From: Pelagomonas calceolata
Taxonomy: Eukaryota
Reading direction: 5' to 3'
DNA: 64,000 nucleotides
Assembly (NCBI GenBank): GCA_918797485.1
Contig: CAKKNE010000001.1
Span: 1-64,000 of the forward strand
Shown: positions 23,874 to 51,169 of the stretch, one piece after another
How the letters are laid out: each line of letters starts with the position of its first letter
Numbering within the stretch: position 1 is the first letter of the stretch
Notes under the pieces: generated by a model
Database searches by the model: none
What the model saw: the letters and a program-made list of their open reading frames with translations, nothing else
What the model was told of the DNA's origin: nothing
Made by a program: the position numbers and the translations under genes

Positions 23874-25877
23874 GGCTAAGGCTAAGGCTAGTTACGTCGC
23901 AGGGTTCCCCGTACCCCTCCCGCTCCCCCCGGGCCCACCCGTCCGGCTGGACTAGGCGACGTCGTCCGGGTCCAGGTCGACCTTCGTCGCCCCACACATG
24001 GCGCACGCCAGGAAGCCCGCCTCGGCCTCTACGTGCCGGTAGGTGCACGCGGGGCAGGTCCACGAGTTTTCGCCCTCGGCCGCGGCGTCGTTCGCTGGCG
24101 ATTGCGGCGGCGGCGCGGCGGCGGGCGGCGCGGCCGGCGACGCGGGCGGGGCGACCGGCGAAGAAGGCGCCGGCGCCGGCGCCGCGCCGGCCTCGCGGTC
24201 TTCCATCGCGTCGATTAGCGCCAAAGTACCGGGCGACGCCGGCGGCGCCTCGTCCAAGTTGCGCATCCCCGCTATGGCTGCGACGGCGCCCGGCGACGCG
24301 GGCGGCGCGGCCGCGACGCGGGGCTTCTTCTGCGTTACGAACGGCTCCATGCCGCTTGGCTTTTTAGGTGCCCGCGGCGGCGGCACCGGCGGCGGCTTCT
24401 GCTTCTGCATATACCGATCCATGCCCTTGGGCGCCGGCGCCGGCGCCGCCGCGGACGGCGGCGGCGAGGGGGCGCGGCTGCCTCGCGCGAGGAACCGGTC
24501 CATAGCGCCCTGCGGCTCCCGCGCCTCGAAACAGCCGTCGCGGTGCCAGACGCGACACGCACGCGCCGCATTGACCGCGTTCTTGGCGATGGTCCACGCG
24601 TGAGCTTGGCTGAGGCACGGAAACTCGCGCAGGAGGTCCGCCTCGACCGTGTCGGCCGACGCGAGTGGCCCAAGCGGCTCGAAAGGGCGGCACGTCGCTG
24701 CGCCCCGCAGGGCCGCGTCCCAGGACCGGTTCTCCTCGGCAATGTAGTCTAGCGTCGCCTGTACCCCGTTGCGCGGCAGGCACAGTAACACGTCTTCGAA
24801 CCATCGGATGAGATCATCTCCTCTCAATGACGTCGCCAGGGAAACCGGCCGGCGTTCTAGGAGGGCGGGCGCAATCGGCATGAGCTCCACCAGTTTGGCG
24901 CGCAACCACTCGACGGACCTCAATTTGGCGACACGCACGAGGACGTCCATGATGTCGCGGCGCCAGTCTCGGTGCGAGCGAAGCCGTTGGAGCTTGAGCG
25001 CAAGATTTCCGAGCTTCATGGCCGCGTGTAGATGCTTGTTCGTGGCGCCGATGGAGTCCATGCCTGCTATCACGTCGAAGATGCCTGGGTTTTCGGCGTC
25101 GTACCGATTGAGTTCGGGCAGCACTAATATTTGAGTAAAGAACAGGACGTCGCCCGTGAGCGAGAGGCGCCGGTCATCAGGGTCCACAATGCGCACCCCC
25201 ATGATGCTGACCTGATTCTTGATTGTGTCGTTTAATACAGCGTCGACGCCCTTCCGACCACTACCACCTATGTCTTTGGCCTGAAACGCCATGCCCTCGT
25301 TTGCCAACCTATCGAAATCGACCACATCTCCTGAGTCGCCCAAACCCCGTGCCAATGGGTTGCCGTACACTCCAAGCAAGTTCAATTTGTAGAGCGCGGC
25401 GGCCACCGCCTCGCCGTGCGCGCCATCATAGCTCTCGCAGAGCACGTAGTTCCACTTTTTGCATAATCGGAAAAAGATCTCTTGAGCCCGCATGAGTTCT
25501 CCATCCCAGCCCCAGGAGCGCTCGGCGCCCTCGCCGCACGCAATGACCTGCGCGCCACTTAAGTGCCGTCGCCTGATCTCGCCGAGCGCTGCGACGCAGT
25601 AGGCAGCTTTGATCTTGTCGTCGTCGTACGGGGGCTTGCCGAAGAGCGTTTTCAAGGTGTCTGCGTCCTTCGTGTGGTTGAAGACTTCCGCAGCGAGGTC
25701 AAAGAACAGTATCAGGCCGCCGACAAACCTTCGCCGCCCGCCGACTTCCTAGTGGGCGGAGCCCCTGGGGGGGAGACACCGCGCGTCGCCGATTCATCGG
25801 CGGCGGGCGCGGGCCGCTTCTTTCATAACAGCGTACCTCCTTCTAAGCAGAACCGCCTCGGCAAACCCCCCCGAACA
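23874..25877 (-). mobile_element. Copy A: CRE-like retroelement 3' end with a 1.8-kb cargo ORF inserted
   Basis: 25749-25877 matches 48394-48522 (2 substitutions). 23874-23921 matches the terminal module at 48551-48597 and ends in (TTAGCC)n. Confidence 0.85.
23952..25748 (-). CDS. Cargo ORF (598 codons, no ATG at its 5' end) with a C-terminal RanBP2-type zinc finger
   Basis: The frame is open from the TAG at 25749-25751 to the TAG at 23952. The C-terminus has WTCPACTY..AGFLACAMCG. Confidence 0.7.
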   Translation of the reverse strand, partial: EVGGRRRFVGGLILFFDLAAEVFNHTKDADTLKTLFGKPPYDDDKIKAAYCVAALGEIRRRHLSGAQVIACGEGAERSWGWDGELMRAQEIFFRLCKKWNYVLCESYDGAHGEAVAAALYKLNLLGVYGNPLARGLGDSGDVVDFDRLANEGMAFQAKDIGGSGRKGVDAVLNDTIKNQVSIMGVRIVDPDDRRLSLTGDVLFFTQILVLPELNRYDAENPGIFDVIAGMDSIGATNKHLHAAMKLGNLALKLQRLRSHRDWRRDIMDVLVRVAKLRSVEWLRAKLVELMPIAPALLERRPVSLATSLRGDDLIRWFEDVLLCLPRNGVQATLDYIAEENRSWDAALRGAATCRPFEPLGPLASADTVEADLLREFPCLSQAHAWTIAKNAVNAARACRVWHRDGCFEAREPQGAMDRFLARGSRAPSPPPSAAAPAPAPKGMDRYMQKQKPPPVPPPRAPKKPSGMEPFVTQKKPRVAAAPPASPGAVAAIAGMRNLDEAPPASPGTLALIDAMEDREAGAAPAPAPSSPVAPPASPAAPPAAAPPPQSPANDAAAEGENSWTCPACTYRHVEAEAGFLACAMCGATKVDLDPDDVA

Positions 25878-25903
25878 TAGCTAGTCAGTAATGCGTGTAC
25901 TTG

Positions 25904-25926
25904 GCTAGTGTCTTACAGGACGCTAG
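25904..25926 (+). promoter_or_regulatory. Conserved 24-bp upstream palindrome, copy 3 (adjacent to the 5' end of copy A)
   Basis: GCTAGTGTCTTACAGGACGCTAG. Confidence 0.7.
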
Positions 25927-26127
25927 ACTCCAGGCTCTCGGTCACTTTGTTTTTTGGCCTGTACGCACGGTTTCACGCTAGGAAATTACCCACAGTTCTC
26001 GCAGCCTCTCACTTGAGTCGGCTCCAGCCTCTGTTAAGTTGGCGTGCGCTTAAAGGACCCTCAGGCCGAGGGACACAATATCTCTGCAGCACGCGCTGTT
26101 CACTGGAGACGCGTCACGCACACAAAA

Positions 26128-26923
26128 ATGGCCACGAAGAACCCCTTAGGCACGGCCCTCATCGACGACCTCCCGCCCGAAGAGGTCCCGTCGGGGAACA
26201 GCGGCTACGCGCCGCCGCCCGTCTCCTACGCGCCGCCACCGAGAAGAAACTTCATACAAGCCTTCCTCCAGCAGCACATTATCGTGCTCTACCTCATGTC
26301 CTTCGTGGGCTTTGTCATCGCCTGCTCGGCGATGTCGAAGGTTAATGGTATAGCAGCCAATAGAAACGGCAACGGGCCGAAGCCGGGCCCGGACGGCCGG
26401 GGCAAGGGCGGCGGCGGCGGCAAGCAGAGCCACTGGCTGGACCGGTGCCAGTACATGGGCGAAGCTTTATATGGCGATCCCGTCTATGAATACAACGGCC
26501 ACCACTACCAGATCGTGGGCGGCAACTGGGCGCAGATCACGTGGCGCCAGGCCGAGATGGATGCTTGGGGGAGATGCTATGGCGGTGTCCCAGGGTACCT
26601 CGCCACGGTCGACGACGCGGCCGAGAACGCGTTTCTGCTCGGGAAGATGCTGGCCCACCAGGGCTTCGGCGTCGGGCAACGCCCGGCTGGATCGGGGCCA
26701 ACGACATGACGAACGAGGGGACCTTCGAGTGGCTGGACGGTTTTAAGGGCGGCAGCGTCTTCTATCGAGATGGGCAGCCGGTCGCTGGCGCTTACAGCAA
26801 CTTTTGGAAGGAGAACCGGACGAGAACGGCGAGAGGACGCGTCGGACGTACGCGACGGGCCAGTGGAACGACGACAGTTGCTACAAGCGGCGCCAGTTCT
26901 TCTTCGTCGAGTACGACGCGTGA
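26128..26923 (+). CDS. Type II membrane C-type lectin domain protein (frameshifted)
   Basis: TM segment; YNGHHYQ..TWRQAE..C..GYLATVDDAAEN; WIGAND..EGTFEW; WNDDSC..FFVEY across frames. Confidence 0.8.
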
Positions 26924-27050
26924 TCGTTCTTCCCTTCCCTGTATCCTGATGATGATTAAGTACGCCTCCCTTGTAGATTTCGTGGGGCTGGACGTCTGAT
27001 CGATGGCGTGAGGGGCTGCACATCAGGCGTTCCGAGTTTGCTTGCTAGTG

Positions 27051-28665
27051 ATTATTCACCGTCCGTGTGGTCGTCCGCCTAGATCATTTCTTCATCCCGT
27101 CGATGTTACGGTGCTAGTACTAGTGGGCGGAGCCCCTGGGGGGGAGACACCGCGCGTCGCCGATTCATCGGCGATCATTTCTTCACGCAGGGAGGAAATA
27201 ATACCTAGCGTGTCGACATACTAGCAAATTCAAAGATACGCTTCGATAGCGTCAAAAGAATGACCCAAATTCAGAATATATCCTGGTCGTTCGCCGCGAC
27301 CAAATATTTCAGAGTAGCGGCCCGGGAACATACCCTCGCGCCTCCCGGAAGGCACCGCCCGCGACATTCGCGGATGAGTCTTACGGCTCGCCAAAGTAGA
27401 CCCGCGCTTGACGCCGCCATCCACCGTCCAGATAGTACATTATATCAACTCCAGCCCAGTTTTCATACAAGTTCGACGGAACCGGAGCCGACGGCGCGCG
27501 CTCGGAGGGCGGGAAAAGAATTCTACTGGACAACTCTCGCGTTTATGTTCGTTTCCTTCCGTTTGTTGGTGGTAGAGTCCATTTCGGCCGAATCAGTGAC
27601 TACTGAGCTATTTTAGATTACCCGTTAGAGCCGCGCGAAACAGCGACTCCACGACCCCAGGTTTATGTGTAGAGGGGCTCAAGACCTAGACCCGCGAGTA
27701 TCAGCGACGCCACCATCCAGATGGATCATAACGCCGTCGTTCTATCCACAATCGACTGACTTGCCCGTTCTCCGCGGACGACGGTGCGGAGACGGAGCAC
27801 CGGAAAGGCCCCAGACGGGTGGTTTATAAAGTAAATTTGCGTTTCAGGCGCTTTAGTTGTGGGACGGGCCAGATAACTGGCCTGAGCGTGTACTACATTG
27901 CTCGAGACCCCACGATGCTCCGCGCGGCTCGGCCAACTCGCGAGCCCACGATCTTGCTTTAAACGGGCAAATTACTTGGACCTGGGCCCATCAGCCCGTG
28001 TACCATCACCATGGACCATGACGCGATCATTTGTTTCATGATCGACGGACTTACGCGAGGTCCAGATAAAGATGTTCACGTCCCGAGCGTGGGCAGCCAA
28101 AAGTACCCTTCTTATAATGTAGATGTCATATACTTGTAATTGACTATCGCTGGGGTAGTATGGGGTCCAACGAGACCGCTACGGCGACTACTGGGGGCCC
28201 TCGGGTAATTGACGTTTTTGACGGGAACGGGGCGCCATCGGGTCCAAATTATTTACTTTTTGTGGATGTAGATCGGCTCGCGGACTCCCTCCGGGATAGG
28301 TCTGGGGTCGGGTAGTCGCCTACGCCGCATGCGCCCGTGCTTGGAGCTCCCCAGAGAGCTCTGGATCGAAATCTTTGGCAAATCATGGCCAATACATCAG
28401 TAGCGCAAAGGACCATGGGAGATGTATCTCACTCTGGAAGCGGCGGCGTAGGCGGCGTAGGCGATTGCACATGTCTAGTAGCGACCCAAAATGGCTTCCG
28501 GGAGACCTCAGGACCACGAATTGACAGGATTCCACCTACGCGCCCGCCATGGCGGGGTCGTCAATATCGCGAATTAAAAAAATTCCTTTTTTGGCCCCCA
28601 GGAAGTGTCCCATTGATCTCTTTGGACCATTAGCGAACTGAACGGTACTCAAACGGCTGCATGCC
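27051..28665. mobile_element. 1.6-kb non-coding insertion with a 24-bp target-site duplication
   Basis: GCGTTCCGAGTTTG(G)CTTGCTAGTG at 27027-27050 and 28666-28690. The interior has lower GC and no convincing ORF. Confidence 0.8.
27095..27172 (-). mobile_element. Copy C: 78-bp mini-element (CRE-like 3' UTR) with a 13-bp TSD
   Basis: Matches about 48470-48543 in reverse; flanked by GATCATTTCTTCA at 27082-27094 and 27173-27185. Confidence 0.85.
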
Positions 28666-28683
28666 GCGTTCCGAGTTTGGCTT

Positions 28684-28708
28684 GCTAGTGTCTCTACAGG
28701 CCGCTAGC
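28684..28708 (+). promoter_or_regulatory. Conserved upstream palindrome, copy 4 (its first 7 bp are duplicated in the TSD)
   Basis: GCTAGTGTCTCTACAGGCCGCTAGC. Confidence 0.7.
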
Positions 28709-28875
28709 TTCACCTTTGCGGACGAGACTCGGCGCAGCGGTCGAAATAGCGCGTGGCAGCCTCGTCACGCTTTGCTTTTAGAGCGCTGCGACTGCTGCTT
28801 CAAAAGAATTGAGCGCTGCGCCTTGTGCGCTACGAAACAAGCCACTGCAGAACTTGTGCTGCAGCAGCTGAGACC

Positions 28876-30273
28876 ATGCTCCGCCGCGCCGCCGCCGCGA
28901 CCGCGCGCGGCATCCGTCAAGCGTCGACGCCGCCGCAGCGCACAGATGCGATCGTCGTCGGAGCGGGCCTCGTCGGCGTCAGCACCGCGTCGCGCCTCGC
29001 CGACGCCGGCCTGCGAGTCCTCTGCGTCACGCGGCACCCGCCGTGCTCCTACACGTCGGCCGTCTCGACGGAATGCTACCGCGACTTCTGGCCGAGCCGC
29101 GAGATGGCGGAGTTAATGTCGCGGTCCATCGACCTGATGGAAGCGACGCGCGCAAGCAGGGATCGGCCTGACGCGGCGCGGCTACGCCTACTGCGCGCGG
29201 CAGCCGGAAACGCTCGCGAAGGCCGTGGCCGAGTGCGAGGACCTCGGTGGAGTGAGGCACCACGCGACGCTCGCCGCGTATGAGCCGTCGCCGGCGGGGT
29301 TTTAAACCTGGACGCCGTCGACGCGCTGCCCGCGGGCTTCGACGTGCTCCACGGAGATGCGGCAAGGCAAGCCTTCCCAGCTTTGGCGGAGGACGTCGTG
29401 GGCGTCGTGCACGCGCGGCGCGCGGGCTGGGTCGACTCGGGCCGCTACGCCGCCGAGCTCGTCGCTCGGGCGAAGGCGGTGGGCGTCACGTTTGTGGCGG
29501 GGTGCGTCGACGGCGTCGAGTGCGAAGGCGGCGCCGTCGCGGGCGTCCGGGTCGACGGGCGCCCCGTCGCGACGTCGACGCTGGTGAACTGCGCGGGGCC
29601 CTACCTGACGCATATACATGGGATGGTCTCGGCGCCGGAGCTGCCGGTTGCAAACGAGGTCCACGCGAAGTGCATCTTCAGAGATGCGTTGCGGACCGTG
29701 CCTCGGAACGCGCCCATGCTCATCTCCCTCGACTCTACGAGAATTATGGACGACGACGGGCTCGAGGACGCCTTCGGCGCTGCAACAGCGGCGAAGCTCA
29801 CGGGACTGGCGCCCGCGGGTGTCCACCTCCGCCCCTGGGGCGACGAACATATTCTGTTGCTGTGGGATTACTGGCATGCCGATTGTGACGTCGAGGAGCC
29901 GCCCGTCGATGTGCCAAGCTTCGACGCGGACCTCTACCCGGAAGTTTGCTTAAGAGGGCTCGCGGGCTTCATACCAGGGTTGCGGGCGTACGTCGACGGC
30001 GAGAGCGAGCGACCACTGATCGACGGCGGCTATTATACCCAGACGCCCGAGAACCGACCGCTGATCGGGCCCGGCGGCGTCCCGGGGTATTACGTGAATG
30101 GGGCCTTTGCTGGGTTTGGGTTGATGGCTGCTGAGGCCGCCGGTGAGCTCTGCGCGGCGCACGTTTTGGGGAACACGCTGCCTTCTTATGCCTCGGCGTT
30201 CGTCCCCTCGCGGTACGCGGACCCGGCCTACCCGCTCGAGGAGTTGGTGTCTCGCGGGGGCGGGTCGATATAG
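28876..30273 (+). CDS. FAD-dependent oxidoreductase (DAO/sarcosine-oxidase-like) with a mitochondrial-type presequence; frameshifted
   Basis: DAIVVGAGLVG Rossmann motif, LVNCAGPY, GGYYTQTPENRPLIG and GFGLMAA. Confidence 0.85.
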
Positions 30274-30514
30274 AAGTGGTGTTGTTGTTGCGTGTAAGTT
30301 TGTGGATAGTTTTGGCGGAGTCGTCTGGCCTGAGAAGAGGAGGTTGCTTGGAGAGCGCATTTTCATGAAAGCTTGAGAGCGAGTTCAGCTTAGCCCAGAA
30401 CAACTTGCACCGGTCACACCGACGCGAAAGGTTCGGAAGTAGTCACTAGTCACAAGTCTCCTAAACAGCCAACACATCAGCTCGCACAGTGAAACCGCTC
30501 TGTGAAAAACTACA

Positions 30515-33107
30515 ATGAACAGCTTGGACTCGTGGCTCGCCGCAACCATAGGCAACCCGGCCCGGCGCGCCGCCGTCCGCGCCTGCGTCGATTCACTCGA
30601 CGACTTCCGGGCGGTCGAGCTCGTCGACCTCGAAGAAACGATCGGCCTCGCGCGGTGGCCCGTGATCTCGCGGCGCCGCTTCGTCGAGGCCTGGAAGCGG
30701 CTGTGCGCCGAGCGCGCGCCGGTCGTCGCCGCGGCGACGACGACGTCGCGCGACGCCTCGACGCAGACGGACGCGTCGCCGCCGGCGGCCGCGGCGCCGG
30801 CCGCGCCGCAGCCGCCGGCCGCGACGCCGAGTGTCGGGGCGCCCAAGCAGCGCGGCCCGTCGCTTGGCCCGCGCGACGAGCTCGGCCGCTTCCCGTGCCC
30901 GGCCGGCTGCCCGCGGACCTTTGCTCACGCGCCGGCGGCGGTGCAGCACGGCAAGGCGTGCGCGGGCGGGACCCGGCCCCCGAGCATCGGGACAAGTCTA
31001 AAGCGCGTCCCTCGCGCCGACTTCGAAGCGTGGCTGGCCGACCGCAAGACGCGCTGGCGCGCGGCGCGAGGCTACGTGCCGCCGCCGCCGCCGCCGCCGC
31101 CGCGGTCCGTCCCCAAATGCCGCGCGCGGCCGCGGCCCCAGCGCGTGTTCGTCCCCGGCGATCGCGTCATATCGCGCGCGAACGCGAGCCTGGGCACGGT
31201 CATCACAGCTCGCGAGGGAGGCCTCCCGCGGGGCGACGGGGTCGTCGTGAGGCTCGACGGCCCCGAAGGCCTCGTGGTGATCTTCCCACCCGACGTCGGC
31301 GGCGACCGGCTCGTCGGGCCCATTGGCCGCGTGGCGATGGCCGGCGCGCCTCCGGCGCCGGCCGCCGCTCCACTGACCGATGCCGGCCGCGTGACGCCGC
31401 CGCCGTCAAGGAAATTGCCCGAAGGGCCGCTGCCGCCGAAGAAGCGGCGCAAGCACCAGCCCGTTGAACCGCGGCCGCACCTCGGCTCGATCACCAACGC
31501 GGCGCATAGCCACGGCGCTGGACGAGGGCACGGTCTCTCACATCCTCTCCTACTTGCGGACACTTGGCGCGGCGCCGGGCCGCGTGTACACACTCACCAC
31601 GTCGGTTTCGCCGACGCCGCAGGACACGCTGTCGTTGAAAGCGGTGCTCGCGCCGTTCCGCTCGCGGGTAATTAAGTGCCCGAGCGCCGCGCACCCATCG
31701 CTGGAAGCAGCCGTCGCCGCGGCGCGGGATCGCGACGTGGTGCTTTTGACCGAGTCCGTGCAACTGGAAGCGCCGATTACCGCGCCGCTTTTCAACCTGA
31801 TCATCGCCGCGGCGACACGGCGCCGCTACGGCGCCGCTAAGAAGGACGAACGCGAGACGATTTGCCAGCCCGGGCAGCAGTACCATCTCGAAGACGTGAC
31901 GGGGCCGCCATATACACAAGTTTCGCCGCGCGGCGAGGTCTTGAACATCCGCATCAACGATCGACACGATGATACGCCCCAGCCTCAAGCGGTCTTCTTC
32001 CGGGTTAGGACGACGACTCTCTTGGCGCTTGCATTCAATGATTTCGCGAGAAGGAAGGGTGTGGATGCGGCGTCAGTCGAGTTCCGCTTTGATGGTGAGA
32101 GGATCCGAGGCGACCAAACTGTGGCGGACGCCGGCCTGGCAGACAGAGGCGCAGATAAACGCCACGTGGACAGATAACGAGGTCATGGTCACCGTCAATG
32201 CGGGGCGCCTTCCCAAGGAAAGTGGAGGGCACAGCGCCGTGCCCTTGCCCGCGATCACAGCCTCGGGTTCGGCCGTGAAGCTCTCGCTGTACGGCATCGC
32301 GTGGGTCGGTCACCGCGGCGGTGTTGTAAACACGCCCCGGAACTCGCCGCAGACGACGGGAATGGTCTGCAAGTCCACGATGAGCACCTCAATCCGTGGT
32401 GTTTGCGGGCGTTCACGCGTTAGACGGTGCGACCGACCGTGTACGTAGAGAATTGCTGGTTCGCGGACCAGACCGTGGCGCTGAAAGTTACTGATGGCGC
32501 CTGGCTCGCTGCGGTTGACGTGACCTTCAATAGGAGCGTCTACGGTGTTTTGGTGGAGGGCGGCGGCACTGCTAGAACCGACGTTGGTGGTGAATTATTT
32601 CGCAAGGGCGGCGGCACCGTTTGTGGCGTTATCAACTGCCTGTTCAACGGCGACCACTACCATGCAATTCAAGTGACGGACGGCGCGCGCGCCGAAGTGC
32701 GCTGGTGCCACATGGATAACTGCCTCATCGCCGGCATGGGGGTCGATGGCCCCCACACTTTTCTGGCGGTCGACATAGAAAAAGGGCCCTCGAGGACGAC
32801 ATATATGTCGCGCGCGCGAACCGTTGCCGAGGGCGGCGAATATTGGCCCATGCGCTTCGCGCTTCGTCAAGGCGGCACGATCAGAGGCCTCGCCAGGGAA
32901 GCTCTCAAATACGGGTGGATGACCAATGCACATACGACCGCAGAGCCGGACAGCGATTCGTCGTTCGAGGACCGCTTGAGGGCCCTCGCGGCCGACGAAA
33001 CATTCAAGGTCCATTGCCCGGAGGACGGCGAGTTCGGCTGCATGTTTCGCAAGGGGCCCGAGCACGAGAAGACGGACCGCTACGGGAAGAAGTTCTACTG
33101 GGGCTGA
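30515..33107 (+). CDS. Multi-domain protein: small Cys/His finger, SUMO-like domain and right-handed beta-helix; several frameshifts
   Basis: CPAGCPRTF..HGKAC; VFFRVRTTT..AFNDFARRKGVD..FRFDGERI..QTVADAGL (SUMO-like); beta-helix-like repeats in 32427-33107. Confidence 0.55.
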
Positions 33108-33156
33108 TCGTCCCGGCCCGTGCTACCTAGTAAGACTATTTATAACACAAATATCA

Positions 33157-37387: not shown

Positions 37388-37411
37388 GCTAGTGTGTCAC
37401 AGGCCGCTAGC
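37388..37411 (+). promoter_or_regulatory. Conserved upstream palindrome, copy 5
   Basis: GCTAGTGTGTCACAGGCCGCTAGC, in the divergent kinase/antiporter spacer. Confidence 0.7.
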
Positions 37412-40473: not shown

Positions 40474-40527
40474 AATTCATTACCTAATGTGTATAATACC
40501 GAACGAAAATCTTACTGCGGGGGAGGC

Positions 40528-41179
40528 TTAAAATTCGCCGTCAGCTCTTCAACCTCGGCGAGCCCGATCTCGTCGGAGTCGCCCGCGAAGCCGTGCTCCT
40601 CGGGCAGGAAGAGCATGCAGTGGCACTCGTGGCGCTCGCGCCTGTGTGGATATCAAATTTCGGGCGCCCCACGCCATCGACGCGACGTCGTCCCCGTACT
40701 GCATCTGCTCGATGGCGTGGAGCTTCCACGCCATCGACGCGAGGTTGCATCCATTCTGCGTCCGCTCGATGGCGAGATAACCTAACTCTGTTTGATGTCC
40801 ACGCCGGCTCGCGCATGGGCACGCAGGGGCAGTTCCAATACCCCGACTTCGCTTCCGCCTCCTTGTCGACGTAGTTGCGGCAGGGGCAGAGCGGCGCGCC
40901 CAAGGCTGCCTTGTGTTCGGCCAGGCCGCGGATGACGACCGCAGGGACAGAAGGTTCCGAGCAGTATTTGGTCCCCGACACTTTGACGTAGCGGTTGCTG
41001 AAGGCCGTCATCGCCGCGAGGGCCTTTTGCACGGGGACGGGCGTGTCGTCGTCCGCCGCGGGGTCCGACGACGAGCTCCGCAGCACTGTCCTGGCGTTAT
41101 GTCGGGAGAGCGCGTAAAAGCCGCTGGCGGGCTGCAAGAGGAGCGCGGCGAGGGTCCACCGCTGGCGGCGCCGCGCCAT
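40528..41179 (-). CDS. ftrB: Ferredoxin-thioredoxin reductase catalytic subunit, plastid-targeted; introner intron 40642-40814
   Basis: GAPLCPCR and WNCPCVPMRERHECHCMLFL after splicing. Signal peptide with ASG-FY (ASAF-like) cleavage site. Confidence 0.93.
40642..40814 (-). mobile_element. Introner element intron (173 nt, GC-AG)
   Basis: TIR CTGTGTGGATATCAAA / TTTGATGTCCACGCCG. Perfect TSD GCTCGCGC at 40634-40641 and 40807-40814. Confidence 0.93.
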
Positions 41180-41362
41180 GGGTGATTTTTCTCTGCCTTG
41201 CTGAAGCTGGGCAGTGTAGCGCTGGCTGGGTCTGAGAATGCGGTTAATTGTGTGCGCCGCTGCCCACTGCAACGAGGAGTCCTGTGGATACCGTGGCCAG
41301 TATAGAAGCGGCCAGCGCTGGCGTTTGACGGCTCAGAGCGCGTTTTGGCAGCAGCAACCAAT

Positions 41363-41386
41363 GCTAGTGTCTTACAGGACGCTAGC
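41363..41386 (+). promoter_or_regulatory. Conserved upstream palindrome, copy 6
   Basis: GCTAGTGTCTTACAGGACGCTAGC, 184 bp from the FTR ATG. Confidence 0.7.
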
Positions 41387-41423
41387 CACAACGTTTTGCA
41401 TCGGGAGGCCATGCATGTGCAAA

Positions 41424-42471: not shown

Positions 42472-42654
42472 GGTGACTAGCCTAGCTCTTAATCCCTCGC
42501 GACCGCGGCGAAGCCGCTAAGCCTCGAAAGCGCCTTGTTATGAACCCTTATCGGTACCGCGCCGGCACAGATATCTGCAGACTAGCGCGGATAGCGCCAA
42601 GAAAAATTCTGAAAACCCGATTTGTTGGCGGAACAAACTCTTTTTACACAACAT

Positions 42655-44034
42655 CTACGACGACTTCGCCGCATCCAACATCCCCTCGACGTCAGAAAAC
42701 TTCGCCCGCGGCGCCCCGTTCCTCGCGTTCGCCTTCTCGACCCCATCGATCCGACGCCAGTCGGCCCACGACGTGCCCTCCCCATAACCGGCAACACCAC
42801 TAGCAGCCAGGTCCTCGAGCACGGCCGCGGCCGTCTCGCGCGCGTCGGCGACGTTCGAGCCGACGATGCCCGTCGGCCCGCGCTTCACCCATCCCGAGCG
42901 GCGCAACCGGGCGCGACGCGACTGCCGACCTGGGCGTAGGTCCCCGCCGGGCCGTCTTGAGGCCTGGCGCGCCTGCCGTCGGGGCAGGGCGGGCTCGCCG
43001 TGTAGCCGACGGCGCAGACCGCCAGATCGCATTCTATGCTTTCGAGGGCGCCGGTGCCCACGGCTGTCTGCGCATTCACATCACCCTCCAAGACGCACTT
43101 CTCGAAGACGACCGCTCCCAGACGGCCCTTGGCTCCTTCCTCGAAGGCCACGGGCCGCCTCAGAAACCGGAGGTGCACCTCCGCTCCGCGGTATTCGTCG
43201 AAGCAGCACCTGATCGAGGAACTTGCGCTTGCGTTTCAGTGGTCGTGCTTTCCCTTCTTCTATTGACGCTTCCGTGTCGCCCGCTTCCAGTTCGGCGGGA
43301 TCGATGACCAGGGCGGCGTTCTCGAGCTCCGTGAGCTCGCGGACCTCTTTCGTCGTAAAGGCCGCCTGCGTCGCGCCGCGCCGCCCGACGACGTGTATAA
43401 GACGCTTCGACGGGAGCCTCTGCAGCGCCTCAAAGGCTGTTGAATGGATGTCGGTCGCGTCGAGATGCGATGAAGGCGCGGCTAACAAGCGCGCGCAATC
43501 TAAAGCAACGTTGCCGTGGCCTATGATGACGCTTCGGAGCTGGTCGCTCACGTCAGGTAACTGTAAATGGGAAAACGTCGGCTCAGCGTTGTACCAACCG
43601 ACGAAGGCCCGCGCGTTGACGACACCTTCCAGTTCCGCGCCGGGCAGGTCCAACTTCCTCGCTAAATCGCAGCCCGTCGCCACGACGACGGCATCATATA
43701 GATTCATGAGGTCGTTTAGAGGTACTACGGGACCGGTATGAGATGGGGCATCAGCCGGATGCCCGACGAAGACGTGGCCCGCGTACGAGAACCTCTCTGA
43801 TGTCGCGACCTCTTCAAAGTCGTCCTGCACGCTCTTCACCTCGGGATGGTCGGGCGCGACGCCGTACCTTACCAACCCGAAAGGTGTCGGCCACCTATCG
43901 AGGATCGTGACGTGTACATTTTTGCTGTCCCTCAGGAGGTACTTCGCCGTGTAGAAGCCGCCCGGGCCGCTTCCGACGACGGCGACGCGCGGCGACGGCG
44001 TGCTGCTGAAGGCTCGGCGTGTGAGGCGCAGCAT
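42655..44034 (-). CDS. FDXR: NADPH:adrenodoxin oxidoreductase, mitochondrial; 3' frameshifts
   Basis: VAVVGSGPGG, PFGLVRYGVAPDHPEVK, IIGHGNVALDCAR and GWVKRGPTGIVG. Confidence 0.92.
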
Positions 44035-44401
44035 TTGCTGTGGTCTGCTGCTTGCTGCAGCGCACGCGTGCCGAGGCGGTTTTCTGCGGTTCGCAGCGGT
44101 ACTGAGTGGTCTCGGTGGAGCCCTGACGTCCCGTCCTTTCAGCGCTAATGCCTCCGCGTATTAGTATGGGGGTGGCAGGCCAAGTCTCAGTGGGTGAGGC
44201 CAAAGCGGGTTCTCGATGCGCGTGGCTCGTACAGTCATCTTGAGACCTCGTTGTATCAATGACAAACGGGAAAACAAGCGTCGCAGCTCTTCATTTCAAA
44301 AACCCGACCGCAAAAAAAATCGCTGAGCGACGATCAATAATCACGCTGTAGCAGCCGTAATTTGACACTAGACAGTCGTCGAGCAAGTCAGAGAAGGCAT
44401 C

Positions 44402-45209
<808 letters not shown>

Positions 45210-45328
45210 GATGGTATGTTCTAATTATATGTCGTTGCCATCACGCCCCCGTCGCGACGAATGCCAACAACTCCCACGCGAAGTCCACGTGGAGAGAAGG
45301 AGAACTTGAAAACCACATCAACTTAGTA

Positions 45329-47506
45329 TCACAGAGTAAACGTCGGCGCCTGCGCCCCTCGACCCGCGGCCTCGAAGGGCAGTCTGACCAGAGGCGAGTC
45401 GAACGCGTCGCGCTTGCGCTCCTCGACCAGCCACGCTATACACGACTCCACGGAGCTCCGGGACTGCGCATAGATTTGTGAACATGCGTCCCGGTCCGAC
45501 GCGTCCACGTCACTGGTAGAAATCGGCTCGCCGAAGCGAAAATAAAACCGCCGCGGGTTCGTGGGCACGGCCAGCGGAAAGCGGAAGTCCTCCGTGCGGT
45601 TCGCCCAGCGCCGCGCCGACGGAATGTTCGGCTGCTCGCCGGTTTTGTCGCGCAGAAAGGTCACGGAGTCCGCCGCGCCCACCGCCCCAAAGGGCACGAT
45701 CAGCGCGTCAAACTTGGCCGCCGCCCGCACGAAGTCCGTCTCCTCGGGCCAGAACAACTTGTTGTTCTCACCCTTGCCATGATTTGATTCTCTGACACCG
45801 CCCGGGAACAACAACACGCACTCGTCGCGCTGCAGTAAGCGTATGAAATTCCGCGGCGTCACTTCCACGGCCCCGAACTTCTGGAAGAAGGACTCGTCGC
45901 CTGTGTGTAAATCAACCAGTGAGTTAGGTATTGCCATCGAACCGACGCAGTCACCGCGACTAACTCGCGTCCATGGCCTAAAAACTCCACGCCATCGAGC
46001 TGATGCACTTACAGGGACGAAGTTGCGTCGATGGCGTGGGGCGCCCGAAATTTGATTTCCACACAGCTCGTTGCCCTGGCCCGTAAACGAGTCGCGGCGT
46101 CTCCCGTCGTTCCACCAATTGGGCGACGGCCGCGGCCCCTGTTGTTGGTTACCGTCTATTAGGGAAGGCGCGTTCGTCGCCACCGGGTGCGCCAATCCCC
46201 TTATGAGTAGGTCGCGGTCCCGCAAAAATTCGTCCACCAGTATGGAGAGATCAGCACCAAACAACTGGTGGTTGCCCACGAGCAGGACCGGTCGTCCCTG
46301 TTGGGGCGAGGGCACGCCTCGTAACCCTTCGACCACTCTCCCTTCAACGGTCGAGAAGAACTTCGGCGACACGAGCCGCCTCAAGGGGTCCACGACGCTG
46401 TCGCGCGTTTCTTTGATCTGCGTCGCGTTGGGCCTCACGAAGTCGTCGACTGCTCTTTGCGCTTTCTTAAGCTTGCGCGCGCGGATCTCGGCCCCATAGA
46501 GTGCTTTGGAGCTTCTCAAACACTGACCGAAGTCGAGGCGCTGCGGGTCTACAAGGACCGCGTGGCCGCCGCCCCGCAAGGTGATGGCTTCCGCATCGAG
46601 TTCCTTCTTCAGTCGTTGCGCTTCGTCCTTGGATGGTAGAAACCGATCATCTTCCCCACAGATGACCAAGAACTTGGTCGAGCGCCCCTTTCTTCTGAGG
46701 CGCCACAACCTTTCATTCGTCTTGGCACAACCACCATCGAGCCAATTTTCTACTCGATGCTTCAGCGTTTCCGGAGGGACCAAGTCAGCCAAAGCCTGGG
46801 CGCCATTGACAGCTCTTTCTAGTCCCGAGAAATCGAGCGTCGAGAACTCTTGCAGAGACTTCGAGACCATGGACCCGTCCGACGCTAGTAAACCGACGGC
46901 GGCGCCGATCGCGCCCGCGTAGGCGACGCCTTCTGCCGAGGACACTAATCTACCGCCGAGGGGCCAGGGCGTCCTATCATAAGAGGTGGCCGGGTTGACT
47001 AGTACGACGCCTCTTAGTTTGTCTATTTGTCTGGAGTCGCTCAGCTTCAGCGCGGCCGCGGTGGCGATGAGTCCGCCCATCGACTCGCCCGCCAGGATAC
47101 CGCCCTTGTCTCGCACGAATTGTGACACCGCTTCCACCACTTCATCAAACGAACTCCGATCCTCCCCGTCGACCCAGCAGTACCACGGGTCGTAGGCATT
47201 CTCAATTAAGTTCGGGAGCTGCGCCGCGACGGAGATACCTCTAAATTCGATGCCCGGGACGTAGAGCAGCGGCTCCCTTTCTACATCGTCGTCGGCGTCG
47301 AGGACGCGCGTGAAGCGCACGTTGCCTATTTTTAAGGTGGCTTCCCTTTGTAGTATCGCCTCGGCGCTGTCGAACATCTCGGTCGTCGTCGTCGACGTCG
47401 CTCCGAGGCGGTGCAGCGCCGCGTGGCGCTCCAATGCCGCGTGACGGCGTGGTGCGGTGAATGCAGTGCATGAGCTGACGAGGAGCAGCAGCCATTTGTG
47501 CGCCAT
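45329..47506 (-). CDS. Phytyl ester synthase / esterase-lipase-thioesterase-like protein (alpha/beta hydrolase + acyltransferase), plastid-targeted; introner 45901-46074
   Basis: GESMGG, LVNPATS, LLVGNHQLFG.D, RGLAHP and LLFPGGVRE. Signal peptide with CTA-FT. Confidence 0.88.
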   Translation of the reverse strand: MAHKWLLLLVSSCTAFTAPRRHAALERHAALHRLGATSTTTTEMFDSAEAILQREATLKIGNVRFTRVLDADDDVEREPLLYVPGIEFRGISVAAQLPNLIENAYDPWYCWVDGEDRSSFDEVVEAVSQFVRDKGGILAGESMGGLIATAAALKLSDSRQIDKLRGVVLVNPATSYDRTPWPLGGRLVSSAEGVAYAGAIGAAVGLLASDGSMVSKSLQEFSTLDFSGLERAVNGAQALADLVPPETLKHRVENWLDGGCAKTNERLWRLRRKGRSTKFLVICGEDDRFLPSKDEAQRLKKELDAEAITLRGGGHAVLVDPQRLDFGQCLRSSKALYGAEIRARKLKKAQRAVDDFVRPNATQIKETRDSVVDPLRRLVSPKFFSTVEGRVVEGLRGVPSPQQGRPVLLVGNHQLFGADLSILVDEFLRDRDLLIRGLAHPVATNAPSLIDGNQQQGPRPSPNWWNDGRRRDSFTGQGNELCGNQISGAPRHRRNFVPVSASARWRGVFRPWTRVSRGDCVGSMAIPNSLVDLHTGDESFFQKFGAVEVTPRNFIRLLQRDECVLLFPGGVRESNHGKGENNKLFWPEETDFVRAAAKFDALIVPFGAVGAADSVTFLRDKTGEQPNIPSARRWANRTEDFRFPLAVPTNPRRFYFRFGEPISTSDVDASDRDACSQIYAQSRSSVESCIAWLVEERKRDAFDSPLVRLPFEAAGRGAQAPTFTL
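45901..46074 (-). mobile_element. Introner element intron (174 nt, GC-AG, in frame)
   Basis: TIR CTGTGTGTAAATCAA / TTGATTTCCACACAG. TSD CTCGTCGC (45893-45900) / CTCGTTGC (46067-46074). Confidence 0.92.
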
Positions 47507-47685
47507 TGCTCAAATTGTGGGCTGAGGTGTTTTGGCTATGCAGGTTTTTTGGGGCTAGCTTGGCCGCACTGCTCTCAAGAATGCAAGCAAAGCGTCTTTT
47601 GGAGCACCTGTGCGCGCCACGCGTTGCAAATTACAGCGGTAACACGCCAAAACACGCCAATGCCAGCTTTAACAAAAAGCATCGC

Positions 47686-47709
47686 GCTAGCGGCCAGTAA
47701 GACACTAGC
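47686..47709 (-). promoter_or_regulatory. Conserved upstream palindrome, copy 7 (reverse; fused to the 5' end of copy B)
   Basis: Reverse complement is GCTAGTGTCTTACTGGCCGCTAGC. Confidence 0.7.
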
Positions 47710-48597
47710 GGCGCGAACCGGGAGGGCCTGGTGATCCAGTTATGCACCGAGGGGCTCGGTGGAGAGCAGGTGCAGAAAGTCTGGGATTCTTTAACTGACG
47801 CGGACGGGGGCGACCTCGAAGGGAGCATAGTCCCGGACATCGCCATCGAGAACGTCCTCTACGACGTCAAAACCGTCGCGGCGACGACCGAGCATTACGC
47901 GCCGGGCCATATCGAGGCCTACATGAGGGCGGAGCACAAGCGCGGTAATGCGCCGGTTGATAGACGCGCCCGTCTCGTGAACGGGCAGTACCTGAAAAAG
48001 GCCCACAAGCTGGATATGAAGTACAACTCGGTCGGGGGCGTCGAGTGCGGTCCGATGGAGAACGCCATCCGGAGCCGCGGCGAGGTTTGTGGTCTCGCGT
48101 TCGGCAGCGCCGGCGAGGCGTCCGCGGACGTCCATCGCCTCGCACGCGTCTGCGCCGACGAGATCGCCGGCAAGCAGTTCCGAAAGGGCCTGATCGACGC
48201 TGATTCGGTCGAGGACGCGGCGGCCATGATTCAGGCCCAGATCTACCGGGAGTGGGGCGTGGCGATTGTCAAGGGTCGGGCCGAGTGTCTACTGGCTTTG
48301 TTGGAATGTACGGTACCGAACGCGTCGCCGCGGTCCAAGGTCGCCTGCGGGAAGTCGCGGGACAAGTTGATTGAACGGGCGAACGTTGCACATTGTTCGG
48401 GGGGGTTTGCCGAGGCGGTTCAGCTTAGAAGGAGGTACGCTGCTATGAAAGAAGCGGCCCGCGCCCGCCGCCGATGAATCGGCGACGCGCGGTGTCTCCC
48501 CCCCAGGGGCTCCGCCCACTAGTCCTAGCACCGTAACATCGACTCTCGCAGGGAGGGGTACGGGGGACCCTGCGACGTAACTAGCCTGAGCCTGAGC
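47710..48597 (+). mobile_element. Copy B: 5'-truncated CRE-like non-LTR retrotransposon (restriction-like endonuclease domain, 3' UTR and (CTGAGC)n tail)
   Basis: ORF to 48477 with VPD..YDVK (PD-D/ExK), VDRRA..Y.KKA..D..Y, GP.E and GL.FG..GEAS..VH.L. Its 3' region is repeated at three other sites. Confidence 0.75.
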
Positions 48598-48719
48598 GAA
48601 CTGCTCGATCGAACTGCTCGCACGGGTCTGTGCGCCGCAGAAACGCCAAACACCGCGAACGCCGCCGCAGTGATTGAAAGAAAGCCTATACTTAGCGCGC
48701 CCGCCCCCATCAAAACGAA

Positions 48720-49304
48720 TCAGCCGCGCGCGAGCGTCGCGGAGCTGATATGTCCGCGGTCCGCGGGGTTGATGATGAGGTCGTTGTTCGGCAGCCAGAC
48801 GCGCTGGCACCGCGTGTCGAGGCCGGGCTCGTCGTGGATCATGTAGACCTCGCCGATCATGCCCGTGGCACTTCTCCCACGGTCGACCTTCCGCTTGGCG
48901 CCGGCGGGCCGGTCCGGCACGGCAGGCTCGCCATTGAAGCGGCCGAACGTATCTCCAAAGGTCGTGGAGTACTGGCCCACCGGCCTTTCGGGGGCGGGTG
49001 CTCTCCAGGTGAACCCAGTGCCATCTCCAGGGTTGACACTGAGCGCCATCGCTTCAAAAACATTCCCTTTCTGGGACATGTTAAACGTCGAGTCCGTGCC
49101 TCGGATGCCGCGGCGCTGCATCCTTGCTGCTCTCGTCATGGCGGCGTCCTTCGGCGGGGACTTGGACGGCACGGGGAACGCGTCGCCCGAAGTGGTGTTG
49201 TACGAGCGGTAGCCGTAGTCCACGAGCACGCCTTCCAGGGGCTCAGCTCTATCCTCGGACCAATTGCCGACCATTACGCGGGGGTCGCGGTAGACGTTGG
49301 TCAT
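48720..49304 (-). CDS. Probable ciliary microtubule-inner protein (NWE motif; CFAP95/CFAP107-like)
   Basis: N-terminal VMVGNWSEDR..Y.TT..D.F pattern. Confidence 0.5.
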   Translation of the reverse strand: MTNVYRDPRVMVGNWSEDRAEPLEGVLVDYGYRSYNTTSGDAFPVPSKSPPKDAAMTRAARMQRRGIRGTDSTFNMSQKGNVFEAMALSVNPGDGTGFTWRAPAPERPVGQYSTTFGDTFGRFNGEPAVPDRPAGAKRKVDRGRSATGMIGEVYMIHDEPGLDTRCQRVWLPNNDLIINPADRGHISSATLARG

Positions 49305-49680
49305 GGTGGTACGCGGTGCTGTTCTAGCGCTGGGGCAGCTTGTATGGGTCTTGGGGCAGCGACGGCGGGCCGGCGCGGCGGAGATTGCGAGAGGCGCTGC
49401 GAGTTACTAGGATACCTATTGTTTGAAAAGCTACTAGCATTCCGACGGGCGGAGCCTTGCTCGAGCCGTCGGCCGGGCCTTGCGGCGCCGGGACGCCGTC
49501 GACGCGTCCGCCGTCGCGCGGGGCGATTCGACGGCTAGCGGCGGCGGCGGCCGGCGACGGGCCGGACGCCACCGCGCAATCTGCTCCACCGAGCGCCCGA
49601 ACCCGCGCATTGGCCGGCGGCGCCGCGCAGTCGGGCGCCAAATCACCAGCCACCCCTTACGCCGGCGGGAGGTGCGCGGC

Positions 49681-50805
49681 CTAGTCCTCCTTGTCGTCGT
49701 CCTTGGCCGAGTCCTTGGACGCGGACCGGTCGCGGCGCCTACGACCGCGGGACCGCGACCGCGACCGGTCGCGGTGGCGGTCCGGGTCCGCACCGTGGCC
49801 GCCGCCCCCGAAGCCCGGCTCCGGTCTTCTGAAAGACGGGTCGTCGTAGGCCGAGGGCCGCGGGCCGTGGCGGCCGTCGGCGCTCGACCACGTCCGGTTG
49901 AGGTCGTCAATACGAATACCTTCTCGTTGGAGCTCGCTGCGGATGTCGTCGGCCACTCTATAATCCTTGGCGACGCGGGCTTTCTCTCTTTCTATCAAGC
50001 GCGCGCGGATGTCGTGGTCGCTGAGGCCGCGGCCGCCTCCGCCTCCGCCGCCGTAGCCCCCTCCATAGCCCTGCGGCGGGCCCCCGCCGTAGCCACCACC
50101 GTAACCTCCGCCGCCGTAGCCTCCATAGCCCCCCTGGGGCGGCCCGCCACCATATCCACCTCCATAGCCGCCTCCATAGCCGCCGCCGCCGCCGCCCCAG
50201 CCCGGGCCGCCGTAGCCGCCTCCACCATAACCGCCACCGTAGCCGCCGCCGCCGTGACCACCACCGCCGAAGCCCGCACCCCCGCGATTGCCCTCGCGGT
50301 CGTACCGGACCACTAAAGGCCGCCCGTCCCCGCTCCCGATGTTCTTGTTGTGGAACTCGTCGATCGCCTTCTCCGCCTCCTTCGGATCGCTAAATTCCAC
50401 AACTCCAAAGCCGCGGCTCCGACCTGTGCGGCCGTCCATCTTCACGATGCTATCGACGATCGTTCCGCAGCTCTTGAACGTGTCCGCGAGCTGCTCGGTG
50501 GTCATCTCGTAAGGTAAGTTTCCTACATATAATCGGGCCGCGCCGCCGAAGGCCCGCGTCGGGTTGCCGGACGGCTGGTTCTCAGCTCGGCCGCGGGACC
50601 GGCTTCGAGAACGAGAGCGGCGTCTTCTCGACGAGCGCTTCCTGCTTCTTGACCGGCTGCGGTCCTTCTTGCGGCGCGAGCGGCTGCGGCTCCTGCTGCG
50701 CGAGCGGCTCTTGCTGCCGTCGTCGGCCTTCTCGGCGCTCTTGGAGCGCGACCGGCTCTTGCTCTTCGAGACCGACGAGGCGTCGGAGTCGTCGTCCCGG
50801 GCCAT
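49681..50805 (-). CDS. RS/Gly-rich RRM RNA-binding protein with a CysRS C-terminal-like helical module
   Basis: LYVGNL (RNP2), RGFGVVEF (RNP1), RS repeats, GGGY repeats and REKARVAKDYRVADDIRSEL. Confidence 0.85.
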   Translation of the reverse strand: MARDDDSDASSVSKSKSRSRSKSAEKADDGSKSRSRSRSRSRSRRKKDRSRSRSRKRSSRRRRSRSRSRSRGRAENQPSGNPTRAFGGAARLYVGNLPYEMTTEQLADTFKSCGTIVDSIVKMDGRTGRSRGFGVVEFSDPKEAEKAIDEFHNKNIGSGDGRPLVVRYDREGNRGGAGFGGGGHGGGGYGGGYGGGGYGGPGWGGGGGGYGGGYGGGYGGGPPQGGYGGYGGGGYGGGYGGGPPQGYGGGYGGGGGGGRGLSDHDIRARLIEREKARVAKDYRVADDIRSELQREGIRIDDLNRTWSSADGRHGPRPSAYDDPSFRRPEPGFGGGGHGADPDRHRDRSRSRSRGRRRRDRSASKDSAKDDDKED

Positions 50806-51068
50806 TTTTTGCTTGGTGTGTCGCGGCGCCGGCGTAGAGCTGTGTAGAGCTGTGCCTGTTAAGGAGCTGGATATGTCTGCTGCTACGGCACGCGCGGTTG
50901 TGACGACGTGTGAGCAGTAAGATCTGGATCCACCGCCAGTGCTCTGTGAATGTGTGAGTCGCTGCTTGCTCACACGTGGAGCAATGGCGCTCGCGATAGA
51001 GGCCCGCGAAGATGTGAAACCAGCGCAACAGAGGTACTAGAAAAAATGTCCCAGCCTTGTTCCGGACC

Positions 51069-51169
51069 GGCGCTGTTCTGCATAGAAGGAGGTGTGCTGT
51101 TATGAAAAATCGCGGCACGCGCCCGCCGCCGATGAATCGCGACGCGCGGCTAGTCCTAGCACCGTAACA
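51069..51169 (+). mobile_element. Copy D: degenerate CRE-like 3' end with a 26-bp internal deletion
   Basis: TAGAAGGAGGT..TATGAAA..CGCCCGCCGCCGATGAATC.CGACGCGCGG|CTAGTCCTAGCACCGTAACA aligns to 48414-48538, lacking 48493-48518. Confidence 0.85.

Follow-up and report, generated by a model that had tools for sequence, protein, structure and literature searches.

Truncated copies of a CRE-like retrotransposon and their probable anchoring at a promoter-proximal motif in Pelagomonas calceolata

The repeats in the window, by which we mean the whole 64,000-nucleotide stretch of DNA that was analyzed, are real, and their sequences identify them as copies, truncated at the 5′ end, of a CRE-like non-LTR retrotransposon of the RLE type that a pelagophyte alga carries. 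We refer to these copies as family 1. Their positions suggest that the element probably docks at a promoter-proximal motif of the host, or at a protein bound there, and nicks unrelated DNA just outside it, with the copy's 5′ end toward the motif. The RLE-type assignment follows from the match of the open reading frame in segment B (the B ORF) to the C-terminal nuclease of proteins that carry a reverse transcriptase (RT), together with a fixed 3′ end, variable 5′ ends and target-site duplications (TSDs).

The preliminary description of this DNA had reported four segments, A to D, that share one module. Exact copies of the module are indeed present in A (25749-25802), in B (48469-48522) and in C (27120-27173), whereas D matches it at 86-89% and lacks 26 nt of it. 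A and B have 129 nt in common at 98%. The segments are composed as follows.

25749..25877, minus strand: A, part 1, a 5′-truncated family-1 fragment that stops early at an internal CACTAG (98% to 48394-48522)
23952..25748, minus strand: A, part 2, an open frame of 598 codons, single copy
23874..23951, minus strand: A, part 3, a short family-2 element ending CGTAACTAGCC with a (TTAGCC)n tail (92% to 48551-48600)
47721..48543, plus strand: B, part 1, the longest family-1 copy seen, with the endonuclease ORF (stop at 48477) and a 3′ UTR ending CACCGTAACATCGAC
48551..48597, plus strand: B, part 2, a family-2 fragment with a (TGAGCC)n tail, stacked behind family 1
27095..27172, minus strand: C, a complete family-1 3′ end, with an RNA end at 27099
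27082..27094, no strand: first copy of the C TSD, 13 bp
27173..27185, no strand: second copy of the C TSD, 13 bp, a perfect duplicate
51072..51169, plus strand: D, a decayed family-1 3′ end from which 26 internal nt are deleted

A, B and D read away from the upstream host gene, as had been stated. In B the module follows a frame that is open and carries PD-x8-DVK, which bears out the earlier report of a PD-(D/E)xK ORF. The first ~7 codons of this ORF (47701-48477) consist of the motif and its flank, so that the element-derived part begins mid-ORF, and it contains no RT. Empty alleles of A, B, C and D were not seen in read mapping with runs that included X3, X8, X14 and X21, which closely match the window; the wild runs X15 and X16 gave short pieces.

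Family-1 copies have a median length of 107 nt, and 3 of 97 exceed 200 nt. Of 97 distinct copies whose flank was long enough, 65 have the 3′ end ...CACTAGTCCTAGCACCGTAACA(TCGAC), and 9 of 11 RNA molecules terminate there, at 48543. The fixed 3′ end is accompanied by variable 5′ truncation and TSDs of variable length, and the B ORF supplies the C-terminal PD-(D/E)xK restriction-like endonuclease. The summed contig depth of family 1 in DNA run X3, which is not a copy number, was 412,952 at the 3′ end and 2,041-5,645 mid-ORF; the corresponding value at single-copy neighbors was ~550. No full-length RT-bearing family-1 copy was found in the DNA examined. Searches of the viral and prokaryote collections turned up neither the module nor the motif nor the ORFs; one 25-residue match there (locus L122) was set aside. 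Neither Rfam families nor tRNA genes were found in the window.

The hairpin and CTAG near both 3′ ends might suggest that the module is the end of a Helitron-like or other gene-capturing DNA transposon. Helitron ends have a hairpin followed by CTRR and make no TSD. Here, conservation continues at least 17 nt beyond CTAG, the TSDs measure 10-17 bp, homologues of the B ORF are linked to RT, and the 3′ ends fold no better than shuffled sequences (z of −0.58, 1.97 and 0.61). We regard this origin as scarcely credible, and a Helitron proper is contradicted by the TSDs and the RT linkage.

The RT linkage, on which the CRE-like reading of the preliminary description also depended, comes from protein comparisons. 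A phmmer search with the B ORF returned 587 proteins at E≤0.001, among them proteins of 800-1170 aa at 33-37% identity, and the B ORF could be aligned to the REL region of these long relatives. One relative (P0126) matches Pfam RVT_1 at 30.5 bits, above the cut-off of 29.6. RT precedes RLE in one ORF in relatives at 25-37% identity. Among 14 relatives, the RT DD motif is present in 8 and a relaxed REL motif, the (R/W/K/N)H(D/N)..E..PD..K part, in 11; B itself is truncated inside this region, and the relatives have a degenerate form of the canonical CCHC knuckle. A profile built from 12 sequences matched the RT regions of LINE-1 ORF2p (1e-6) and R2 (1e-3), the only matches that the PDB gave. 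At the set thresholds neither the B nor the A ORF was assigned to a family by Pfam or PHROGs, and the ESM Atlas gave unnamed clusters only (0.95-0.96) for B and no match for A. The AlphaFold model of B has a pLDDT of 80; Foldseek found nothing for it at E≤0.001, with an R2 chain (8iby) at E 2.6, and a wide structure search returned helical-hairpin matches only, with Z<8. Thirteen of the 24 listed read variants in the B ORF are synonymous, a share that is no more than suggestive.

The motif is a 22-bp imperfect palindrome, CTAG...CTAG, that recurs just upstream of genes. A pattern written from the motif's own copies matches 7 times in the window and 0.00 times in shuffled sequence, and a looser rule finds 9 copies. 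The relevant sites, all without strand except the last, are the following.

25904..25927: motif next to A, preceding it by 27 nt
47686..47709: motif next to B, preceding it by 0 nt
27205..27224: degenerate motif, located 19 nt upstream of the TSD of C
17121..17142: unoccupied motif
21903..21924: unoccupied motif
28685..28707: motif that lacks an adjacent family-1 element; a duplicate of its right flank lies at 27027-27050
37389..37410: unoccupied motif
41364..41385: unoccupied motif
55155..55176: unoccupied motif flanked by divergent genes
62638..62661: unoccupied motif, 24-bp variant
49407..49453, plus strand: empty target, comprising a variant motif (49407-49437) and a single-copy target (49442-49453)

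The TSD of C and its degenerate motif were absent from the preliminary description, and D has upstream of it only a CTAG half-site (51037-51040). Downstream of the A motif, a host transcript apparently starts at 25958, where 32 molecules end in RNA run X21. The target at 49442-49453, which lies near a transcript end at 49384, occurs twice in locus L024, once on each side of a family-1 copy. Because the variant motif is retained at the empty site of this pair, the motif is the host's and not the element's, as had been proposed; this is the one clean empty/filled pair, with a variant motif and from a lineage ~85% identical. In addition, the CACTAGC half of the B motif is present without B at the matching place of L024.

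The relation of the copies to the motif was measured in 110 distinct ocean-metagenome insertions, which came from about half of one collection, were retrieved by exact match to a single 29-mer and are all survivors of selection. The motif lies within 100 nt of the family-1 5′ end in 49 of 94 copies, and the corresponding count for the 3′ end is 0 of 93; the background rate is 18 in 1874 tiles, and at 100-200 nt upstream the motif was found for 1 of 88 copies. The expected non-random placement of copies relative to the palindrome is thus observed. The median distance from motif to 5′ end is 19 nt, with 31 of 49 values between 11 and 25 nt. The preliminary description was right that the palindrome adjoins A and B, but both of its ends are used, and not the CACTAGC end only: the end that faces the copy is CGCTAG in 26 cases and CACTAG in 23. 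On the other hand, no good full motif was present within 100 nt of 45 of the 94 copies, which counts against anchoring. A CTAG occurs within 60 nt upstream in 70 of 94 copies, yet also downstream in 24 of 78.

The directions of neighboring genes bear on the same question. The upstream gene is divergent in 22 of 23 called motif-linked copies and the downstream gene is convergent in 41 of 42 called copies, while gene directions are mixed in tiles 2.5-4.5 kb away (19+:14− downstream and 5+:8− upstream). Since motif-less copies too face a convergent downstream gene (26 of 27), gene direction may be the primary cue. It is conceivable, if unlikely, that there is no motif anchor, that insertion occurs in open intergenic DNA or antisense past the 3′ ends of genes, and that selection leaves copies in ~100-nt gaps where the motif is incidental. 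Consistent with this explanation, the gaps are small: the motif is ~100 nt from the next stop codon (median 21 + 86 nt), and tight gene packing accounts for part of the closeness of copies to the motif. Within the gap, copies tend to lie on the motif side (KS p=0.003, n=13); if 40 nt are allowed for the 3′ UTR, this skew is no longer clear (p=0.08). However, selection alone would keep both orientations of a 100-nt fragment, whereas the observed ratio is 49:0, and the 17 copies typed on both sides include 13 tandem-antisense and 0 tandem-sense cases. The distance from the motif to the 5′ end is also tighter than that from the 3′ end to the stop codon, which ranges from 24 to 465 nt. Unoccupied motifs lay between convergent genes in 0 of 21 typed rows.

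The TSDs speak both to anchoring and to the site of cleavage. Those of family 1 are 10-17 bp long and lie in unrelated sequence. An exact TSD of at least 8 nt was found in 15 of 66 copies and in 26 of 4290 mismatched pairs; when one mismatch was allowed, the numbers were 19 of 71 and 73 of 4970. The distance from the start of a TSD to the nearest CTAG is −3 to +19 nt, and 14 of 15 ends cluster at 13-18 and 24-26 nt from CTAG, a grouping that, despite the small sample, argues against insertion independent of the motif. One TSD, at locus L121, overlaps the motif. The TSD positions do not support the earlier view of the palindrome as the nicked target.

Family 2 is a separate family of ~80 nt, which is found next to motifs in the absence of the module as well. 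The "ACTAGC plus tandem repeats" at the 3′ ends of A and B, which had been taken as a match to the target end, is the tail of this family. In three of the four loci with a family-2 core, family 2 begins ~0-10 nt after the motif, and in the fourth it lies behind family 1. CGTAAC occurs near the 3′ ends of both families. Family 2 uses the sites of family 1 with the same polarity and stacks with family 1; it is probably mobilized in trans. The ORF in A has a nuclease-like motif, D..FQAK (seen by eye), a Pro/Ala linker and a C-terminal zinc ribbon that falls below the Pfam cut-off; its single-sequence structure model has a pLDDT of 37. This ORF could be family 2's own truncated ORF or a host orphan struck by two insertions.

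The complete model of the preliminary description appears quite improbable. It makes the palindrome itself the site that the RLE nicks, and has the same machinery transport cargo of both kinds, coding and non-coding, with the A ORF as an example. In its favor, the A ORF has a family-1 fragment on one side and the 3′ end of family 2 on the other, its first 85 codons lack Met, it is present once in X3 and received no coverage in two wild metatranscriptomes, and CGTAAC occurs in both families; the TSD at L121 and a 24-25-nt repeat, including a half-site, that flanks 27051-28665 also favor this model. Against it, the TSDs have no sequence in common and nearly always begin beyond the motif, A is not bracketed as a unit by a TSD beyond a 7-nt match, the A ORF has one relative cluster, at 79%, and its 85-codon stop-free run has p=0.06. 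Being single-copy, the A ORF is at most a candidate for cargo, and the claim that the machinery moves coding passengers is not upheld. A modified proposal is less improbable but still doubtful: an RLE element that has abandoned sequence-specific cutting would reach from a dispersed Pol II promoter motif, nick any sequence 1-2 helical turns away and, by way of a CGTAAC 3′ tag, deliver family 2 and coding cargo to safe harbors throughout the genome of an alga that ranks among the most abundant in the ocean. The outcomes that had been named in advance as adverse to the CRE-like reading (no RT-linked homologue, random positions, empty sites without the motif) did not occur.

The preferred reading, anchoring of family 1 at the motif, can be formulated as follows. 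The insertion complex would dock on the 22-bp host motif or on a protein bound there, and would nick unrelated DNA a few to ~20 bases outside it. A full-length master, as yet unseen, would then carry out target-primed reverse transcription, and new copies would end up with the 5′ end toward the motif. Copies between the motif and the start site may be lost by selection, or excluded by the transcription complex, and the survivors would remain in the short gap toward the 3′ end of the neighboring gene. The motif may be read by an N-terminal domain of the element itself or by a host factor, and the two are about equally likely. Overall, adjacency to the motif at ~20 bases, with copies pointing away, likely reflects an aiming mechanism that spares genes. 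The analysis also brings to light a conserved and apparently uncharacterized pelagophyte promoter motif, as well as numerous polymorphic insertions in wild populations.

Family 1 resembles the CRE group (CRE1/2, SLACS, CZAR, Cnl1, MoTeR, FoTeR) in that RT is followed by a C-terminal REL in the relatives, in its 5′ truncation and in its TSDs; the parts of PMC12857005 available to us give the REL layout of this group as RH(D/N)..E..PD..(D/E). According to portions of the same source and of PMC4640811, the targets of RLE clades are for the most part multicopy repeats; rRNA genes, spliced leaders, microsatellites and telomeres are examples. Family 1, in contrast, is not inserted in a multicopy RNA gene or simple repeat; its anchor is a dispersed motif and its cut sites have no common sequence. 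Titles and abstract openings from the full-text literature, a scope outside which Repbase and subscription journals fall, contained no description of an RLE element aimed at a promoter motif. In R2Bm, as far as the consulted part of PMC10499050 goes, the RUM at −34 to −22, on the future 5′ side of the element, positions the first nick, much as we propose for the family-1 motif; R2 also requires the RASIN sequence at the nick and tolerates a spacing change of +1 nt only. The spacing of family 1 varies by ~20 nt, its nick sequences are unrelated, and it occurs at dispersed promoters and not in rDNA. Should motif reading and remote cutting both be the work of the protein that the element encodes, this would be natural R2-like anchoring without a cut-site sequence, with a bearing on gene-insertion tools. 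The Dictyostelium element TRE5-A, from the sections seen of PMC3159450 and PMC5006619, inserts with specificity for both position and orientation ~50 bp upstream of a gene in a compact genome, with the 5′ end facing the gene. Family 1 is likewise a non-LTR element in fixed orientation a short way upstream of a gene that its 5′ end faces. In those sections TRE5-A has an APE nuclease, two ORFs and a Pol III tRNA gene target, probably reached via TFIIIB, whereas family 1 is RLE-type and lies at protein-coding promoters, in a window with no tRNA gene. Similarly, Tf1 of S. pombe inserts beside the binding site of the promoter factor Sap1 and forms nested clusters, in the excerpt consulted of PMC5371812; both features recall family 1, for which a motif-binding factor is only putative, but Tf1 is an LTR element with an integrase. 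If the proposed anchoring is correct, family 1 would represent a safe-harbor route in a compact genome by which an RLE-type non-LTR element is aimed at protein-coding promoters, and not at rDNA, spliced leaders, telomeres or tRNA genes.

The preliminary description had treated four segments sharing a module as one system. The module is as reported there, identical in A, B and C, with part of it missing from D, and the repeats are real, but the system merges two repeat families.

23874-25877, minus strand: A, a family-1 fragment, a long open reading frame (A ORF, 23952-25748, minus) and family 2
27095-27172, minus strand: C, a clean insertion of family 1, flanked by a 13-bp target-site duplication (TSD)
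47710-48597, plus strand: B, family 1 followed by family 2
51069-51169, plus strand: D, the part-deleted module
25904-25927 and 47686-47709: copies of the motif, a 22-bp CTAG...CTAG imperfect palindrome, beside A and B

The 3' end of family 1, the module-bearing family, extends beyond CACTAG to CACCGTAACA(TCGAC) in 65 of 97 distinct copies; at this end of B, RNA molecules terminate at 48543. Family 2, about 80 nt long, has CGTAACTAGCC at its 3' end, followed by a (TNAGCC)n tail; it is also present without the module, adjoining the motif. CGTAAC lies within about 10 nt of the 3' end in both families (48532-48537, 23891-23896) and is a possible shared tag for recognition by the reverse transcriptase (RT), as which a six-base match could be chance.

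The reading frame of B had no Pfam match. A phmmer search with it returned 587 proteins at E≤0.001, many of them 80-98% identical, and several relatives of 800-1170 aa at 33-37% identity. Pfam RVT_1 was passed by one of 16 proteins scanned, with another below the cut-off. The RT DD motif was present in 8 of 14 relatives and a relaxed version of the restriction-like endonuclease (REL) pattern described for CRE/SLACS/MoTeR (PMC12857005) in 11 of 14; the CCHC knuckle is degenerate. In PDB, a 12-sequence profile matched LINE-1 ORF2p and R2 within their RT regions. Given these motifs and matches, B is the C-terminal nuclease of a 5'-truncated non-LTR element with a restriction-like endonuclease, CRE-like by the REL pattern of its relatives. 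An RT-bearing copy of family 1 was not seen in the metagenome loci and sequencing runs. In the portions of text and supplements available, the Pelagomonas calceolata genome paper mentions masked repeats and introners and not this element, and its gene table holds at least two PF00078 genes (PMC9481584).

The A ORF, an open frame of 598 codons, is 100% identical over the aligned part to a public Pelagomonas calceolata protein, which identifies the host as this pelagophyte alga or a very near relation. Its 24608-25612 stretch is single-copy in the DNA run X3 and uncovered in two wild metatranscriptomes. In the RNA run X21 its sense RNA is low and 3'-biased, and antisense RNA (plus strand) is higher, reaching a depth of 62 over 24206-25000. 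There is one relative cluster, at 79% identity, which keeps the zinc ribbon; a D..FQAK stretch resembles a nuclease motif on visual inspection only. The A ORF may be family 2's own truncated frame or cargo that was captured, or else a host orphan that received two insertions independently.

Family-1 copies were collected from an ocean-metagenome collection by one exact 29-mer (121 loci from 33 of 64 parts); its 122 matches represent 110 distinct copies once shared flanks were merged. The median length was 107 nt, with 3 of 97 exceeding 200 nt. Summed contig depth in X3, which is not copy number, was 3'-biased: 412,952 at the 3' end, compared with 2,041-5,645 mid-ORF and about 550 in neighbours. 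Exact TSDs of at least 8 nt flanked 15 of 66 complete copies versus 26 of 4290 mismatched pairs; allowing one mismatch, 19 of 71 versus 73 of 4970, with lengths of 10-17 nt and sequences unrelated to each other. Truncation, 3' bias and TSDs of this kind are hallmarks of target-primed reverse transcription.

The consensus of the motif over 47 22-mers, chosen by likeness to the window copies, is CTAGTGTCTTACAGGCCGCTAG. One apparent transcript start, at 25958, is 32 nt downstream of the motif, and another, at 49384, is 23 nt downstream of a variant. Unoccupied motifs typed on both sides were divergent in 11 rows (8 distinct), tandem in 10 and convergent in none, and 11 were untypable. The motif behaves as a host promoter-associated element. 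The window itself is gene-dense eukaryotic DNA of about 62% GC. Repeats based on CGCCATCGACGCGA within genes (7069-7361, 40636-40743, 45964-46066) resemble pelagophyte introner elements. An ORF of 2631 aa (7495-15390) carries DUF285 repeats in 75-nt units and Pro/Thr-rich linkers; since DUF285 is named from Mycoplasma, it is possibly of bacterial origin. Clusters of indels and substitutions relative to the sequencing runs (26668-26847, 49536-49639, 51183-51446), where host ORFs are broken, are probably local assembly errors.

Of 94 family-1 copies with enough flank, 49 had the motif within 100 nt of their 5' junction; in the matching window past the 3' end it lay in none of 93. At 100-200 nt upstream it occurred in 1 of 88 copies, and among background tiles in 18 of 1874. 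The median distance to the 5' end was 19 nt, 31 of 49 falling at 11-25 nt, and either motif end served as the near side (26:23). Relative to the nearest CTAG, TSD starts ranged from -3 to +19 nt, and TSD ends lay at 13-18 nt (8), 24-26 nt (6) or 32 nt (1). This grouping hints at helical phasing, but the sample is 15, and in some cases the nearest CTAG differs from the outer end of the motif. In 12 of the 94, a further piece of family 1 or family 2 lies within 100 nt upstream, which shows that sites are reused.

Gene direction was called by a codon model (52 of 52 right in leave-one-out). The upstream gene was divergent in 22 of 23 called motif-linked copies, with 2 more ambiguous and 25 too short to call; where no motif was linked, it was divergent in 11 of 19. 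Of 42 copies called for the downstream gene, 41 had it convergent; a further 5 were ambiguous, and 63 were too short or lacked a full 3' end. Directions were mixed in tiles 2.5-4.5 kb away. Surviving copies therefore almost never split the motif from its gene. Gene packing and selection account for part of this pattern: a good full motif is missing at 45 of 94 copies, only about 100 nt separate the motif from the stop codon of the neighbour, and the downstream gene is also convergent in 26 of 27 copies without the motif. Position within this gap was skewed to the motif at p=0.003 (13 of 17 loci callable), a skew that was no longer clear (p=0.08) once a 40-nt UTR was allowed for. The 49:0 polarity, however, is not readily accounted for by packing and selection.

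At a site where the window lacks an element (49442-49453) and retains the variant motif, a metagenome locus (L024) that shares about 85% identity with the window around B carries a family-1 insertion flanked by a 12-bp TSD. At the B site it has a CACTAGC half-site and no element, adjoining an inversion breakpoint. The inversion and gene-order change (L024 2140-6990 against window 47500-49530) has breakpoints at or near motif half-sites, and the motif region may thus be a rearrangement hotspot. Elsewhere, a 24-25-nt direct repeat containing a half-motif (27027-27050, 28666-28690) brackets a 1.6-kb non-coding block that may represent one more insertion at the motif; 27216-28663 has a high repeat number in X3 and is transcribed, and family 1 is inserted in copies of it at two metagenome loci (L084, L046).

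We consider it likely that a full-length master, itself unseen, supplies an RNP that would dock on the motif or on a protein bound there and nick unrelated DNA immediately outside it. Target-primed reverse transcription would mostly abort at about 100 nt, a second nick would yield the 10-17-bp TSD, and gene-side copies would be lost or excluded. The earlier interpretation, a promoter-targeting system with cargo, is recast in part; the repeats on which it was built stand.

A literature search of partial sources, with Repbase outside its reach, found no published description of this element. The proposed mechanism resembles that of the R2 upstream motif (PMC10499050), but family 1 has no fixed cut sequence or spacing. 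TRE5-A (PMC3159450, PMC5006619) and Tf1/Sap1 (PMC5371812) are also similar in their way of working, and family 1 belongs to none of the three.
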